In this document: in pieces, positions 1,459 through 6,195 of the stretch
How positions within the stretch are numbered: the first letter of the stretch is position 1
How the letters are laid out: the number at the start of each line of letters is the position of its first letter
Origin: a virus
Taxonomy: Duplodnaviria; Heunggongvirae; Uroviricota; Caudoviricetes
IMG/VR virus record: IMGVR_UViG_2561511241_000001
Location: 1 to 40,644 of that record
DNA length: 40,644 nt
Reading direction: 5' to 3' (one strand)
The notes under the pieces: generated by a model
Told to the model about the DNA's origin: nothing
Seen by the model: the letters and a program-made list of their open reading frames with translations, nothing else
The model's database searches: none
Made by a program: the position numbers and the translations under genes

Positions 1459-2622
1459 TTACACATCATTAGTACCTTCCTTATTTTTTGACTGGGACAA
1501 ATTTGGGACCGATGGGTTCAGGATCGAGTCTATTTGCCGTGCGTGTTCGGTAAGGTGATTAGGTGCAAGGTGAGCATATCGACGAACCATTTCGATAGAC
1601 TCCCAGCCTCCCATTTCCTGTAACACTGACAACGGGACTCCGGCTTGAACCAGCCAACTTGCCCAGGTGTGTCTCAAGTCGTGAAATCTGAAATCATCAA
1701 TACCAGCCCGTCTCAGCGCCGCTTTCCAGGCTGTGTTTGCGTCATACCGCATCTTCCTTACTGTTGGCGCTTTCGTTCCGTCTGGTTTGGTACAGCTTTC
1801 CTTGTACACAAATACCCAACGGTGATGATTCCCGATTTGTTTTTTCAATACGCGACATGCAGTATCATTCAGCGCAACGCCAATTGCGCGGTTTGATTTA
1901 CTCTCTTCCGGGTTTATCCATGCCACCCGGCGCTGCATATCTATTTGTTGCCATTCAAGGTTGATGATGTTCGAGCGTCTTAAGCCTGTTGCCAGTGCAA
2001 ATTCAACAACAGACTTTAATGGCTCCGGACATTCATCAATCAGCCTTTGTGCTTCATGGGGCTCCAGCCAGCGGATCCGTTTATTCTTTGGTTGAGGCAC
2101 TTTAATAATTGGTGCCTTATCCAGCATTTTCCATTCACGCTCTGCGGCTCTTAGTAGGGCCTTTATAAATGAAAGATGCGTAGCCTTCGTTGCAACGGAC
2201 GCTGGTTTTGGCGTGTATTCTGGAACAGGTTTCCCTTTTTTTCTGCATGCTTCTGCCCTGAGTTTCCAGTTTTCCTCATGACGCCGGTTCGTCATTTTCT
2301 GCATTGCTGAATAAATTTTTGATTCAGTAATGTCTCTTAGTTGCATTCCTGCGAAATGTTGAAGCCAGAATCCGATCCGGCTTTTGTCATCGTCCAGTGA
2401 TTTTTTATGTGCTTTCTCTTCAAGCCACCTGACACACGCTTCCTCGAACGTTATATCAGGTATTTCACCAAGTTTGCTGACCCGCCATGCTTCAGCCTTT
2501 AGCTTGTCATGGAGTTCTGTCGCCTGCCTTTTGTCCTTTGTTCCAAGAGACTGTTTAAATCTTTTACCGTTCGGCAATGTGAAACTGGCGTACCATATTT
2601 CACCTCTGCGGAAGAGTGACAT
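1459..2622 (-). CDS. int: tyrosine integrase (P22/SfV-type, thrW-specific)
   Basis: 387 aa; [34 protein letters not shown]... matches my recollection of P22 Int; C-terminal catalytic region [15 protein letters not shown]...MVRRYAHL (R-H-R-Y signature); GAGGAAA RBS; adjacent to att. Confidence 0.9.
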
Positions 2623-3154: not shown

Positions 3155-3510
3155 TATGCTCCAGCCTCCGGTGCTTTTGGCATTACTGCCCAGTGAGTGA
3201 TATTGACGTTTTCAAGGTCCCCGACCTGAAATGTCCACTGCCATTCTCCGGTTTCTTTTTGTCCCCAGGTGTACCAGAGAGAACGCCAGCCAATTAGCCA
3301 GCCTTCTCCGTTAGCATCGAATAACAAAACACTTTCATTTGCTGGTGGCAGTTCAGTTGACACTGGTATTACTTTGTTTTCCTGTGCTGCACATTTAGCT
3401 TCAAGCGCATCGAATTTACGCACCAGGTATTCAGCATCTGTTTCATTCACTTTCAGATCTCGCGGTACACATCTCCCACGAAGAAACCCTTCCATTTCGA
3501 AAACATTCAT
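3154..3510 (-). CDS. DUF551-like phage protein
   Basis: Motif KVIPVSTELPPANESVLLFDANGEGWLIGW typical of DUF551 proteins of lambdoid prophages; start ATG overlaps stop of upstream gene (ATGA). Confidence 0.6.
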   Translation of the reverse strand: MNVFEMEGFLRGRCVPRDLKVNETDAEYLVRKFDALEAKCAAQENKVIPVSTELPPANESVLLFDANGEGWLIGWRSLWYTWGQKETGEWQWTFQVGDLENVNITHWAVMPKAPEAGA

Positions 3511-4043
3511 GCGCATTTGCGTAACTCCGATAACTCGTTAAAACGTTCCATAAACATCCCGTAGGCATGGCCCGGTGCCTGTGGAATCACTTTGAACATC
3601 TCTGTTGCCGGGATACCTTCCAGTACAGGCCAGAAAGAGCCATCATCAAGCCCGAGATCGCGGTGTTCGGTTGCCAGCATAATGAGATCGGCATATTTCA
3701 CTGGCGTGCTCATAACAGGAGGTAACCCGTATTTCTCACGGATTACGGCGTCTATTTTTTCTTCCATCCGTTTATAGTCAGGAAGAAGTCGTTTCAGTGG
3801 TGCGGGGATGTCCTGGCAATATGCTTCTGTTGCATCATACATTAAAGCTTCAAAAGCAAATTCCTGTGGCACCAGCTGGCTGCAAAGCACCGCATGTTGG
3901 GCGACACTGTAGAAGTGTGAAAGATGTCCTGCAAAGCGACAGATATTTGAAAGGGAAACCGCGATATCGTTAATAACGATGTCGTCTTTATTTATCCTGT
4001 CATAATAAAAATGCTTCCCGGAAAAAGTTTTAATAAATGACAT
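3507..4043 (-). CDS. HD-domain phosphohydrolase (YfdR-like 5'-deoxynucleotidase family)
   Basis: MSFIKTFSGKHFYYDRINKDD...HAVLCSQLVP...HDATEAYCQDIP closely resembles my recollection of CPS-53 YfdR; start chosen at the second ATG, which has a GGAG RBS 6 nt upstream. Confidence 0.7.
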   Translation of the reverse strand: MSFIKTFSGKHFYYDRINKDDIVINDIAVSLSNICRFAGHLSHFYSVAQHAVLCSQLVPQEFAFEALMYDATEAYCQDIPAPLKRLLPDYKRMEEKIDAVIREKYGLPPVMSTPVKYADLIMLATEHRDLGLDDGSFWPVLEGIPATEMFKVIPQAPGHAYGMFMERFNELSELRKCA

Positions 4044-4684
4044 TTTGTTCTCCACGTATATGCGCTGCACCGCGCTGAATTCGGGTAAAAGGAAGCCCTC
4101 ACCGTCCGGCGATTATTGAGTCAATTACATTTCCATAAATGCCCCCGTAGGGGCGGTTAGTTTCTCCACAAAACAGAGAAGAACACCTGCGGTGGCAGCC
4201 GCCCGGATGGATTGGGTTATGAGCCCGTCGTCCGGTGATGCTCTTCTCTGTTTTGTAAAAAGGACGGTACCAGCCGGAAGCAAGGGTACAAGCTGGTACC
4301 GCCAAGACTACACACAGCATAAAGTTGTGGTGCCGGGCGCCTCCCGGTGCCTGGCGAAGGTTGCACACCAGGCGGGTGGGTATCCACAGAAGGTCGACTG
4401 TCAGCCTCAACCTTTACCCGCGTGCGCTGAGCCGCATTCACCACAACGCTAAGGATTCTCTCTGGTTGAAAATACTTAGCTGTTATGTGCCTGCTTTTAG
4501 CCACATCAGGCGAGGTGGACCTAGTTATTCCCCAACAACAAGGATTTGGTTATTATGTAACCCTCCCCAACAACGATAAGGATTTATATGGAACGATGTG
4601 TAGATAAGTATGAGGAGAGGCATGTGCCGTTAAGACAAAAGCCTCCAGTTCCTCCAAAACCACCCAAGGAAAACTGAGACTAAT

Positions 4685-5179
4685 ATGACCAGAGACGATT
4701 ATAAATTTTATATTCACTACTCTTATGTATTGGAGAAGATGAATTACACGTTGTTAACTCGTATTGATAAATTAATAACGTTGATGTTAATCGTTCTCGG
4801 TTTTTCAGTTTTCGCCCCGTACAGTAATTTATTTATTTTCGGTTTGTTTGTTGCCGTACTTTCGGTTCTTCAGTTGGTCTATCAGTTCGGCCAGGAGGCT
4901 GGGATGTCTAAAGAACAAGCGAGGCATTACAAAAGACTGCTGATTGAGTCTGATACTCTTTCTGAAGATCAGTTGCAAGCTAGGTATTTAAAAATCCAAG
5001 ATACCGATAGTAATCCATGGAAATCACTTGAACGAGCGGCTTTCATTCGGGCCTGCATTTTTGCTGGTGTTCCAACTAAGTACGATCTAACAACCAAAGA
5101 AAAATTTATTGCTTGGTGTGCGGGAGATCTACCTCTAGAGAATGAACTAACGGATATTAATGATGACCAACAAGCATAA
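4685..5179 (+). CDS. two-TM membrane protein, possible superinfection-exclusion (SieB-like) moron
   Basis: 164 aa; hydrophobic segments LITLMLIVLGFSVFAPY and LFIFGLFVAVLSVLQLVY followed by a soluble charged C-terminus; AT-rich; opposite to the leftward early operon; internal in-frame ATGs at codons 19 and 34. Function is inferred from position and topology only. Confidence 0.45.
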   Translation: MTRDDYKFYIHYSYVLEKMNYTLLTRIDKLITLMLIVLGFSVFAPYSNLFIFGLFVAVLSVLQLVYQFGQEAGMSKEQARHYKRLLIESDTLSEDQLQARYLKIQDTDSNPWKSLERAAFIRACIFAGVPTKYDLTTKEKFIAWCAGDLPLENELTDINDDQQA

Positions 5180-5345
5180 TCCAGTTCACGGACATGTACC
5201 TCCGAAGCCGAAACCACCGAAACCGAAGAAATGAGACATAATAGGATTGGATAATGAGTCGACCAATAGAGCCTTTTCATATTCCACCTCGTCCCAGGCC
5301 ACCAGATCCAGGCCCAAAGTGAGGGTTACTGATTTTTAAAGAGCG

Positions 5346-5369
5346 AAGCGTCCGGTAGGGCGCTTTTTT
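5346..5369 (+). terminator. rho-independent terminator ending the rightward sieB-like transcription unit
   Basis: AAGCGTCC-GGTA-GGGCGCTT hairpin (8 bp with one G-U pair) followed by TTTTTTGTTG. Confidence 0.5.
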
Positions 5370-5453
5370 GTTGCTAACGAATCATCCTGGACTTCATATG
5401 CTCCAGGGGGCTACTTCGTGGGCGTCCTGCCTGTTTGTTGTTTCGCTTGGGTA

Positions 5454-5482
5454 CATTATGTATCTCAAAGGTACATTGTCAA
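5454..5482 (-). promoter_or_regulatory. candidate PL (leftward early promoter) with overlapping operator half-sites
   Basis: On the minus strand: TTGACA (5482-5477), 17 bp spacer, ATAATG (5459-5454); GGTACAT operator-like motifs at 5449 and 5470 overlap the -35 and -10 regions. Confidence 0.4.
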
Positions 5483-5484
5483 GT

Positions 5485-5508
5485 ATAAAAAACCTGCCGA
5501 AGCAGGTT
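5485..5508 (-). terminator. rho-independent terminator downstream of cI
   Basis: Minus strand AACCTGC-TTCG-GCAGGTT followed by TTTTTTATACTT, immediately 3' of the cI stop at 5521. Confidence 0.5.
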
Positions 5509-5520
5509 CATAAACATTGA

Positions 5521-6195
5521 TTAGGCTTTGATTTTGTATCTTCTTGGTTTTCCTGAGAAAATCACTGTACCAATTATAGAGCAATTACCGTTGATCTTAA
5601 TGTAAGGCTCAGGCCAGTTTGGGTTTAACGCTTTGAGATAACGCTGTGTCCCATCTTCTATCAACCTTTTGAAGGTGGTTTCACCTGTATCGTGCATCAA
5701 TGCAATAACGTCGTCACCGTGGCAGGCAGGTACTTCAGGATCGACAAAAATCATGTCTCCCGGGCGGTACTCATCAATCATTGAATCACCTATCACCCGC
5801 AAGATATAAGTCATTTCCCCACAGGGGACAGGGCAGGGATACGTTTCTGCTGTGCTCAAATCAACCTCAGAATATCCAACTTCTTTCCATGCTCCGGCCT
5901 GTACCCATGATATGACAGGGACTAATGTGATTTGTTTATTAGTGATTGAAACATCAGGTTTTTTTGTGATGTTCGTTGTCTGGTGTTCTTGATCGAGCCA
6001 TCCCACAGGCAGGTCGAAACATTTTTCGATGTGTCGTGCCATGCTGTCACCGATATTTTTAGTAGCACCATCTCCCATAAACCTGCTGGTCTGGGTTGGC
6101 TCGCGATCAATCATAGTGGCAAAGGAAGAATTCCCGCCAACACCATCTCTCAGTTTTCTGGCGTTAGACCGCCGGATGTCATGGATTGTTTTCAT
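5521..6195 (-). CDS. cI: CI-type prophage repressor (HTH + S24 LexA-like peptidase domain)
   Basis: 224 aa; C-terminal S24 signature (GDSM...K in FKRLIEDG) and N-terminal HTH-like region; divergent from a Cro-like gene with a palindromic operator between them. Confidence 0.85.
   Translation of the reverse strand: MKTIHDIRRSNARKLRDGVGGNSSFATMIDREPTQTSRFMGDGATKNIGDSMARHIEKCFDLPVGWLDQEHQTTNITKKPDVSITNKQITLVPVISWVQAGAWKEVGYSEVDLSTAETYPCPVPCGEMTYILRVIGDSMIDEYRPGDMIFVDPEVPACHGDDVIALMHDTGETTFKRLIEDGTQRYLKALNPNWPEPYIKINGNCSIIGTVIFSGKPRRYKIKA

Follow-up and report, generated by a model that had tools for sequence, protein, structure and literature searches.

Positions 4044-4684 of a 40,644-nt stretch of viral DNA (IMG/VR record IMGVR_UViG_2561511241_000001; the whole stretch is referred to here as the window) carry, on the minus strand, a structured RNA unit that belongs to the STnc100/PasD family. 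The window represents a lambdoid prophage integrated at a tRNA-Thr gene (1369-1444), the sole tRNA that Rfam and ARAGORN detected in it, and the segment under study lies between yfdR and a rightward gene for a protein of 164 amino acids. Our finding is largely explained by a known RNA family; what is new is the context in which the unit occurs, a set of subfamily features of its own, and a pseudoknot in its core. With modest confidence, we favor the interpretation that the segment specifies a damage-inducible small RNA (sRNA) that is driven by the leftward phage promoter pL and doubles as a leaky attenuator. An initial annotation had described the segment as rich in hairpins and poor in open reading frames (ORFs) and had offered three readings of it, namely a structured non-coding RNA, the decayed end of a mobile element, or a cis-acting antitermination-type RNA; it had left the strand unstated. 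The signal resides on the minus strand, which is also the strand of the early-left operon (yfdR to int), and the first of the three readings is now strongly supported by a full-length Rfam match, by covariation of the nested helices and of the pseudoknot, and by wide conservation.

A permissive Rfam scan, one of the checks that the initial annotation had proposed, aligned the STnc100 model (RF02076) over its full length (model positions 1-206 of 206) with 4254-4477 on the minus strand at 42.2 bits (E 1.2e-7). This score lies below the gathering threshold of the family (47 bits), and a scan in gathering mode returned no STnc100 match. Sub-threshold matches were also obtained in phages SfV (39.5 bits), phiES15 (40.6 bits) and ST64B (35.1 bits). 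Homologs were collected by scanning viral contigs for the P4 motif of the RNA core, which gave more than 120 loci, and by searching genome contigs with a stricter 25-base subfamily pattern, which gave five. From 39 aligned representative cores, the window among them, we built a covariance model (R1) that retrieves 76 copies from 59 sources; on the window itself it scores 77.7 bits (E 6e-18; 4323-4448, minus strand), a match that is expected by construction because the window is a training sequence.

Covariation across relatives, likewise proposed in the initial annotation, was found in the core, in the pseudoknot and in the adjoining terminator. RNAalifold, applied to a MAFFT alignment of the 39 cores, recovered helices P0, P1, P2, P3 and P4 with compensatory changes in 12 of the 25 pairs. 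In the R1 alignment of 74 distinct homologs, 96.7% of the cells were paired and 20 of the 25 pairs showed compensatory change; none of 500 shuffles reached these values, and slid controls yielded 38-49% paired cells. The R1 alignment is fitted to the model and leans towards structure, so that the MAFFT/RNAalifold count serves as the independent check. Even the otherwise invariant P4 stem (CCGGG/CCCGG) is replaced in Klebsiella phage Kp4866-6 by GGUGG/CCACC, with its loop (AGGCA) retained. The core is conserved in phages of Escherichia, Shigella, Salmonella, Klebsiella and Cronobacter and in phage P1.

The loop of the P3 hairpin pairs with the strand that directly follows P1, thereby forming an H-type pseudoknot whose complementarity is retained through at least 12 different sequences among the homologs. 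The strands read AAGGUUG/CAACCUU in the window, AAGGCUGG/UCAGCCUU in phiES15 and AGACUGACAAA/UUUGUCAGUCU in a divergent contig (L024); types found in late regions of phage genomes carry AUCAGC/GCUGAU, CUGGUG/CACCGG, CCAGUC/GACUGG or GCCAGGUC/GACCUGGC. The family core is hence newly recognized as a four-way junction that is locked by a covarying pseudoknot missing from the Rfam model. The coordinates of the core and of the other features discussed below are compiled in Table 1.

Table 1. Features of the segment and of its surroundings (window coordinates)
Feature	Position	Strand	Remarks
Segment under study	4044-4684	signal on -	between yfdR and the 164-aa rightward gene
Pseudoknotted RNA core (STnc100/PasD-type)	4324-4447	-	four helices; Rfam match, own model, covariation
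Core P0 closing stem	4439-4447 / 4324-4332	-	
Core J 'AAU'	4436-4438	-	
Core P1 hairpin	within 4420-4435	-	
Core P2	4416-4419 / 4374-4377	-	GGGU / ACCC; long-range helix
Core pseudoknot strands	4408-4414 / 4357-4363	-	AAGGUUG / CAACCUU
Core P3 hairpin	4366-4372 / 4350-4356	-	
Core P4	4333-4347	-	hairpin CCGGG-AGGCG-CCCGG
Single-stranded conserved stretch UUUAUGCUGUGUGUAGUCUU	4304-4323	-	candidate seed / Hfq-proximal region
Intrinsic terminator	4257-4303	-	12-bp stem GGCGGUACCAGC / GCUGGUACCGUC, 17-nt loop (4263-4303); U5 tract 4257-4261
5' extension, early-left subfamily	4448-4518	-	hairpin GCCUG...CAGGC 4489-4511; alternative CCAC...GUGG 4501-4518
5' extension motif ACAUAACAG	4480-4488	-	
5' extension proximal hairpin	4448-4480	-	GCUAAG...CUUAGC
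Direct repeats AAUCCUU(N)GUUGUUGGGGA...	4561-4584 and 4524-4546	-	repeat search, reading of strand
Y-shaped long hairpin	4168-4256	-	20-bp outer stem and two inner hairpins; 25-nt inverted repeat
Y hairpin inner arm GGGCUCAUAACCC	4209-4229 region	-	anticodon-arm-like
Vestigial P0-like motif GGAGAAAC	4160-4167	-	continues UUUUGU of stem; ahead of yfdR leader
GC hairpin GCCCCUACGGGGGC	4141-4154	-	ahead of yfdR leader
Candidate pL promoter	5455-5482	-	TTGACA-16-CATAAT; TGTACC operator-like half-sites; about 1.1 kb upstream, outside segment
Integrase	1459-2622	-	followed by xis, yfdT and a phage gene
yfdR	3507-4043	-	left neighbor of segment
29-aa proline-rich small ORF MERCVDKYEERHVPLRQKPPVPPKPPKEN	4588-4677	+	8 nt ahead of 164-aa gene
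164-aa gene, function not assigned	4685-5179	+	right neighbor of segment
LexA-type repressor (ymfK)	5521-6195	-	followed by cro (ymfT)

The hairpins, repeats, GC richness and ORF poverty that had been listed for the segment are all present, with coordinates accurate to within a base or two. A repeat search delimited the arms of the long hairpin to 4168-4192 and 4232-4256 (25 nt, 84% complementary) and those of the second hairpin to 4265-4274 and 4292-4301 (a perfect 10-bp stem with 17 nt between the arms), and the GC stems noted at 4333-4380 correspond to core helices P4 (4333-4347) and P3 (4350-4372). The GC content reaches 0.53-0.585 across 4100-4500 as compared with 0.35-0.49 in the flanks. 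Two features had been missed: a perfect 9-bp long-range inverted repeat (GTTGTGGTG / CACCACAAC, 4324-4332 / 4439-4447), which is the closing stem of the core, and a third copy of the direct repeat (4441-4457) in addition to those verified at 4530-4546 and 4568-4584. Folding against shuffled controls revealed excess stability on both strands, more so on the minus strand (z -6.1) than on the plus strand (z -3.6); the 231-nt unit folded alone gave a z-score of -4.2.

Members of the family have been studied by others. RNA-sequencing (RNA-seq) and sigma-factor occupancy data are on record for STnc100 in strain LT2 (PMC10794520). PasD1 of enteropathogenic Escherichia coli (EPEC) is a 173-nt RNA with mapped ends that has been validated by Northern blotting, depends on Hfq for its stability and has many partners in experiments that ligate and sequence interacting RNAs (RIL-seq; PMC8550237). 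Within the family, accumulation as a discrete RNA together with Hfq dependence has been demonstrated for PasD1 and PasD2 (PMC8550237). The PasD transcript starts at P0. It carries its seed, UGUGAG, just 5' of the terminator, and RIL-seq chimeras fall into its last ~50 nt (PMC8550237). A structural link between PasD and STnc100 had been drawn before, in a preprint from 2026, which located the two near Q and the lysis genes. With STnc100, the window unit shares the same nested helices, the motifs GGUGAAU and CACCGGGAGGCNCCCGGCACCA, a 3' intrinsic terminator, and its prophage-borne nature; it differs by other sequences and another register of P1 and P2, by its 5' extension, by a different 3' spacer, by the pseudoknot absent from the Rfam model, and by the lack of a detectable abutting promoter. 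STnc100 resides either downstream of stx or in the interval from Q to the lysis genes, whereas the window unit is found at the head of the early-left operon. In PasD1 and PasD2 of EPEC strain E2348/69 (EcOnc13 in enterohemorrhagic E. coli), core, single-stranded seed and terminator succeed one another in the same order, and PasD1 follows the same pseudoknot logic (AAUGAUC / GAUCAUU). However, PasD1 possesses a slimmed core with a 3-bp P4, to which R1 assigns only 29.7 bits, PasD has its own promoter starting at P0, its neighbors are Q, LpxR and holin genes, and its seed UGUGAG stands against UGCUGUGUGUAG in the window.

To examine the flanks of the core, we relied on an alignment of nine early-left sequences (window, K-12 e14, SfV, ST64B, 118970_sal3, Kp4866-6, phiES15 and two viral contigs). 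The intrinsic terminator that follows the core shows compensatory changes in nine of its 12 stem pairs, and a terminator-like hairpin is present within 400 nt of the core in 121 of 130 family contexts. Directly adjoining this stem, which changes completely among the homologs, TGCTGTGTG is invariant in all nine sequences, and UGCUGUGU was found in the divergent contigs L024, L062 and L073 as well. An invariant stretch beside a covarying terminator is the pattern expected of a seed next to a terminator, and the invariant UGCUGUGUG of the window sits where the mapped seed of PasD is located. The short U-tract suggests that the terminator is leaky. The GGTACC repeats of the terminator had been considered as operator half-sites of the repressor; we rejected this idea, since phages that differ in their repressors possess the same hairpin.

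On its other side, the core is preceded by a 5' extension that is conserved up to a block boundary near position 4518 in SfV, SfII, e14 and phiES15. Its covariation is weaker (80-84% paired). In phiES15, the proximal hairpin is swapped for a different self-complementary sequence (ATGAAGCGCAUU / AAUGCGCUUCAU), and GGCACAYAACAG of the 5' extension recurs in two further contigs (L073, L093). The direct repeats upstream of it are similar to AAUCCUUAGCGUUGUGGUGAAU, the junction that marks the 5' edge of the core (4435-4457), and the three minus-strand copies (4524-4546, 4561-4584, 4435-4457) can be merged into the consensus AAUCCUU(N)(C)GUUGU(K)G... The upstream repeat pair GTTGTTGGGGA(A)TAACCAG, with a spacing of ~38 bp, recurs in many relatives. 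The repeats may serve as sites for protein binding or be what is left of truncated element copies.

The genomic position of the unit is as consistent as its fold. In the early-left subfamily (ST64B, phiES15, SfV, Kp4866-6, e14), it is always found on the early-left strand between the repressor gene and the first early-left gene. It is positioned between the repressor gene sb38 and sb37 in ST64B, and between the gene for a DicA-like repressor and kil in phiES15, where a canonical terminator is present at its end. The order in SfV is pL, orf33, terminator, element and then orf32 onward, and Kp4866-6 is arranged alike; in the e14 prophage of E. coli K-12 it is pL, ymfJ, antisense ymfI, element (annotated as 'ymfH'), xisE and intE. 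The window copy, likewise, is flanked by the immunity region on one side and by yfdR/xis/int on the other and is not part of a late region with Q, esterase, holin or stx genes nearby. Hence, a family that has so far been tied to the Q/lysis region extends to the head of the early-left operon and, as detailed below, to the ban operon of phage P1.

The only strong leftward promoter that we found is the pL candidate upstream of the segment, and it is probably the source of the leftward transcription through the element. Both this promoter and the repressor protein of the window (WP_000848748.1) have identical counterparts in K-12 e14, and SfV contains the same promoter sequence. In e14, ymfH, xisE and intE are induced by azidothymidine (AZT) and DNA damage in dependence on LexA cleavage (PMC11228462), and the three genes belong to the YmfT iModulon. 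The e14 homolog is therefore transcribed when the prophage is derepressed, and RNA polymerase reaches xis and int past the terminator. Several candidates for a promoter abutting the RNA itself, namely GAGAAT before P0, CATAAT at 4557-4552, and TGGC..GGC, were rejected, as they are not conserved among the lineages. A candidate divergent plus-strand promoter in the 5' extension (TTAGCC-16-TATACT) is good in phiES15 and lacks its -10 element in the window.

Copies of the family in late regions are equipped with a TTGAC...TAAAT-type promoter whose start lies at P0; an example is a contig (L078) with the order Q, promoter, core, terminator, holin. The lambda 6S RNA and StxS are leader transcripts; the first terminator of a phage operon releases them, and they can be used as sRNAs. 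The late-region family members occupy just that place; there is no sequence relationship to 6S or StxS, however, and the window copy is part of the early-left rather than the late operon. Some viral contigs carry tandem arrays of three to five core-plus-terminator units with a spacing of ~250 nt (L070, 4378-5461 and 8378-8517; L030, 371-990; L022, 2324-3352), which suggests an amplification of the sRNA unit.

Taking fold, position and family membership together, the unit might work as follows. Leftward transcription would start at the repressor-controlled pL (5482-5455), which we infer from the identical e14 arrangement to be switched on by DNA damage, and RNA polymerase would then cross the 5' extension, the pseudoknot-locked core, the stretch UUUAUGCUGUGUGUAGUCUU and the terminator before entering the Y-shaped hairpin beyond them. 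At the terminator with its short U-tract, a fraction of the polymerases would halt and release an RNA of ~190-260 nt. The folded core would provide the stable scaffold of this RNA; the single-stranded stretch, the terminator hairpin and the U-tail could form a module that binds Hfq and base-pairs with mRNAs in trans, as in PasD. The remaining polymerases would read through into yfdR, xis and int, and in this way the unit would also act as a leaky attenuator. Our analysis establishes the fold, the family relationship, the synteny, the terminator and the non-coding status, whereas the promoter, the ends of the RNA, its dependence on Hfq, its seed and its targets are predictions.

Several observations weigh against this interpretation. 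The e14 expression data are gene-level counts. Patterns for sigma-70 and sigma-54 promoters, sought beside the 5' extension and the edge of the core, disclosed no conserved promoter of its own in the early-left subfamily, and therefore the RNA may be absent in a quiet lysogen. A search for complements of the seed within the prophage returned the element itself and no internal target. A U-tract of just five residues is short for a strong Hfq-binding 3' module. The copy in phage P1 (69758-69883; L135, 2001-2126; 73.8 bits with R1), located inside the C1-controlled ban operon, stands 30 nt ahead of tciA without a terminator and resembles a cis element; its core is compensated (P0, GUUGCGGUG/CACCGCAAC; pseudoknot, UGGUUAU/AUAACCA). 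Finally, base-pairing sRNAs of the ordinary kind do not usually contain an invariant pseudoknotted domain of ~125 nt, and such a domain exceeds what they need; a further role of the core in binding a protein, RNA polymerase or a ligand consequently remains plausible.

Such a further role could consist in antitermination in cis, the third reading offered in the initial annotation. According to this alternative, which we regard as unlikely, the core would resemble put or nut sites in that it stays with RNA polymerase, or recruits a factor to it, so that terminators are passed and the missing N protein is replaced in phages of the SfV, ST64B and e14 types. The location fits: in phages that lack an N gene, the element is found on the operon strand, downstream of pL and upstream of both a terminator and xis/int. 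No N-like ORF is present between the pL candidate and the element in the window, and the product of SfV orf33 is acidic and not N-like. Casjens and co-workers have speculated that N-less phages related to ST64B might possess a put-type RNA (PMC12315714). The invariance of core nucleotides beyond the needs of pairing (e.g., the P4 loop AGGCA and GGUGAAU), the terminator-free P1 copy, and the expression of e14 xisE and intE after induction in spite of the terminator would find an explanation as well. On the other hand, PasD and STnc100, which have the same core, accumulate as RNAs that end at the adjacent terminator, and the core alone therefore does not suppress this terminator. Late-region copies, moreover, reside in operons that already have Q, and we found a single copy in the window, with none in its rightward operon. 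The put RNAs themselves measure ~70 nt, consist of two stem-loops and bind the zinc-binding domain of the beta' subunit (PMC9378689). HK022 putL and putR and HK639 putL share with the window element the position downstream of pL in lambdoid phages lacking N, but the window core is a 125-nt four-way junction with a pseudoknot. No similarity in sequence or structure was detected: HK639 putL, read by eye, showed none, the HK022 put regions gave no STnc100 match in Rfam, and R1 found nothing in the HK022 locus (L008) and only a late-region copy in HK639 (L009).

A broader variant, and one that is about as doubtful, is that the core represents a new class of cis-acting transcription elements, unrelated to put, that binds RNA polymerase or an elongation factor. 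Were this true, the core would account for read-through of the early-left terminators in the N-less lambdoid phages SfV, SfII, ST64B, e14 and phiES15, the same module would have been reused in the P1 ban operon and in late-operon leaders, and the sRNA would be a by-product formed in the absence of a helper condition. In any case, our data make it a testable question how N-less SfV, ST64B and e14 pass the terminator before xis/int, and K-12 e14 offers a ready genetic system for this purpose.

The P1 ban operon also contains an annotated 'dicF-like region' and three tRNAs. DicF is reportedly an sRNA of the lambdoid Qin prophage that is encoded in a repressor-controlled early operon and is released by termination and processing. 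There is a weak local similarity to it (UUGGCGGUAUCAG) at the window terminator, and P1 combines the dicF-like region with a copy of the core; unlike the window unit, DicF is only 53 nt long and has no pseudoknotted domain. The Rfam DicF model (RF00039) scored 19.4 bits at 4262-4316 of the minus strand (E 0.17), far short of its threshold of 48 bits.

Between the terminator and yfdR lies the Y-shaped hairpin, which is a 5' leader module of the first early-left gene, separate from the sRNA unit, and constitutes a second conserved, hitherto unnamed RNA module with an initiator-tRNA-like arm. Its outer stem is 97.5% paired in the early-left alignment and contains three compensatory pairs. The hairpin is conserved in 71 phage records, among them Stx2c-converting phages and phage mEp460, in which BLAST detected only terminator and hairpin. 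R1 indicates in mEp460 a divergent core (26.6 bits; L006, 3355-3491) just upstream of terminator and Y hairpin, overlapping the coding sequences (CDSs) mEp460_036 and mEp460_037. In Klebsiella phage GZ7 (L136, 2501-2590), a homologous Y module directly follows tRNA-Asn and tRNA-Arg downstream of Q, and in the late lysis region of Pantoea phage PA-1 (L139, ~2490-2600) it is found immediately 5' of a core-like start, GUUGUGGUGAAU, where R1 scored no full core (7.5 bits). The sequence GACGGGCUCAUAAYCCAAUCCAUC is common to both modules.

On the 3' side of the Y hairpin, UUUUGUGGAGAAAC of the window aligns with GUUGUGGUGAAUC of PA-1, which is the start of a core, so that the origin of this 3' block may lie in the initial part of a second unit that was truncated. 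The position of the GC hairpin in front of the yfdR leader is kept, with different sequences, in ST64B, Kp4866-6 and phiNP.

These relationships bear on the question of whether the long hairpin is without a function of its own, being either a tRNA gene that has decayed or a miniature mobile element, a possibility that we consider improbable. Its arm GGGCUCAUAACCC resembles what we take to be the anticodon arm of initiator tRNA, the GZ7 module follows two tRNA genes, and the perfect 15-bp terminal inverted repeats would suit a mobile element; the Y module may indeed be a structured module derived from a tRNA. Yet the identity as a tRNA or tmRNA was rejected, given that neither ARAGORN nor Rfam recognized the hairpin as a tRNA in the window or at the homologous sites of four other loci (L004, L006, L007, L137), and in GZ7 only the two upstream tRNAs were reported. 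The 'anticodon' loop is variable (CUCAUUA in some phages, UUAAUAA in e14), and the broad conservation noted above likewise runs counter to a functionless remnant. The reading of the segment as the decayed end of a mobile element is left without support in general: the unit has a single syntenic position at the head of the early-left operon, and the hairpins, including the outer and inner stems of the Y structure, preserve their pairing through compensatory substitutions in phages of E. coli, Salmonella and Klebsiella. Candidate roles of the Y hairpin are those of an RNase III site, an mRNA stabilizer or a mimic of a tRNA arm.

We attach little probability to the idea of a riboswitch-like leader, in which the core would serve as an aptamer that senses a ligand or a protein and thereby governs both termination at 4257-4303 and access to the xis/int operon. 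The core has the appearance of such a device: it is a compact pseudoknotted junction closed by P0, nucleotides in its junction and loops are conserved, and a terminator comes immediately after it. The AAGGUUG strand of the window possesses an alternative local partner (UCGACCUU) that is used in the minimum-free-energy fold. This alternative partner is not general in the family, however; no conserved alternative pairing between core and terminator exists, the terminator sequences differ completely among the lineages, no riboswitch was matched in Rfam, and many copies are free-standing, with their own promoter and terminator, and do not precede a regulated gene.

The non-coding status of the element follows from how its ORFs behave. 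Only mutually overlapping short ORFs are present, as the initial annotation had noted; they measure 84-103 amino acids in four frames, and these four ORFs, located on both strands, have no match in Pfam. All four are comparably 'conserved' by tblastn, with hits that are divided between frames in ST64B, phiES15 and P1; the conservation is therefore at the nucleotide level. The ORF length varies between 54 and 187 amino acids among near-identical relatives. In K-12 e14, residues 1-34, 37-50 and 61-96 of the annotated YmfH protein map to three different frames of the window element. In the e14 copy (L142, 2496-2880), the P4 loop has lost 1 nt and a G in the P4 stem has been exchanged for A (CCGGGGGCACCCGA), and the loops of the terminator and of the Y hairpin are altered as well. 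This copy looks partly decayed, and the annotated YmfH ORF depends on its indels; the nucleotide missing from the P4 loop would explain the first switch of frame.

Genomes of enterotoxigenic E. coli carry an identical stretch in which the Prokaryotic Genome Annotation Pipeline (PGAP) labels a 'frameshifted hypothetical protein' (window ~4125-4444, minus strand). Since K-12 YmfH, the reference of this call, is itself a patchwork of three frames, the ORF against which the 'frameshift' was counted is most likely one that only a decayed copy possesses. The initial annotation had named a frameshifted remnant of a known protein gene in related phages as an outcome that would speak against an RNA; such a remnant is present in form, in the PGAP call, and not in substance. 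A protein-coding gene (ymfH, SfII_35, phrog_3651) or its remnant is extremely improbable, despite the PGAP call, the annotation of SfII_35 and K-12 ymfH as CDSs and the match of the plus-strand ORF 4192-4452 to phrog_3651 (E 5e-49; a family without assigned function), given the frame-split and variable ORFs, the lack of a Pfam match, the distribution of YmfH over three frames of the intact element, substitutions that preserve base pairs, and the fact that the annotators of ST64B, SfV and phiES15 called no gene at the element. The unit is present in 1913 of 5426 complete E. coli genomes (about a third), where it is labeled as a hypothetical, frameshifted or YmfH protein; these annotations, including that of K-12 e14 ymfH, call for correction, as the sequence behaves as an RNA.

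The 29-aa ORF at 4588-4677 is part of the neighboring rightward insert and separate from the RNA; its peptide is conserved in one contig (L017) and diverged in another (L053). Altogether, three small plus-strand ORFs surround the 164-aa gene (4588-4677; 5160-5234 and 5254-5322, encoding MMTNKHNPVHGHVPPKPKPPKPKK and MSRPIEPFHIPPRPRPPDPGPK), and they have a proline-rich tail in common, H-[VI]-P-[PL]-x-x-[KR]-P-P-x-P. Diverged versions occur at three sites in L053 with the motif kept, so that the products give the impression of genuine peptides; they might act as polyproline stalling leaders or as effector peptides rich in proline.

The 164-aa gene and the repressor gene are convergent (5345-5366 and 5440-5509). 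Read on the plus strand, the hairpin at 5345-5366 makes a good terminator; its minus-strand version suffers from A-C mismatches and a broken U-tract. With the minus-strand hairpin defective, transcripts from pL would run antisense through the 164-aa gene before they reach the RNA element.

In the window, neither the C4 antisense RNA nor IsrK was matched at the Rfam gathering threshold. SfV, ST64B, mEp460 and an Stx2c phage contain the two RNAs next to each other in the rightward region, with scores above the Rfam thresholds (L003, 5964-6152; L004, 909-1097; L006, 824-1012; L007, 914-1102).

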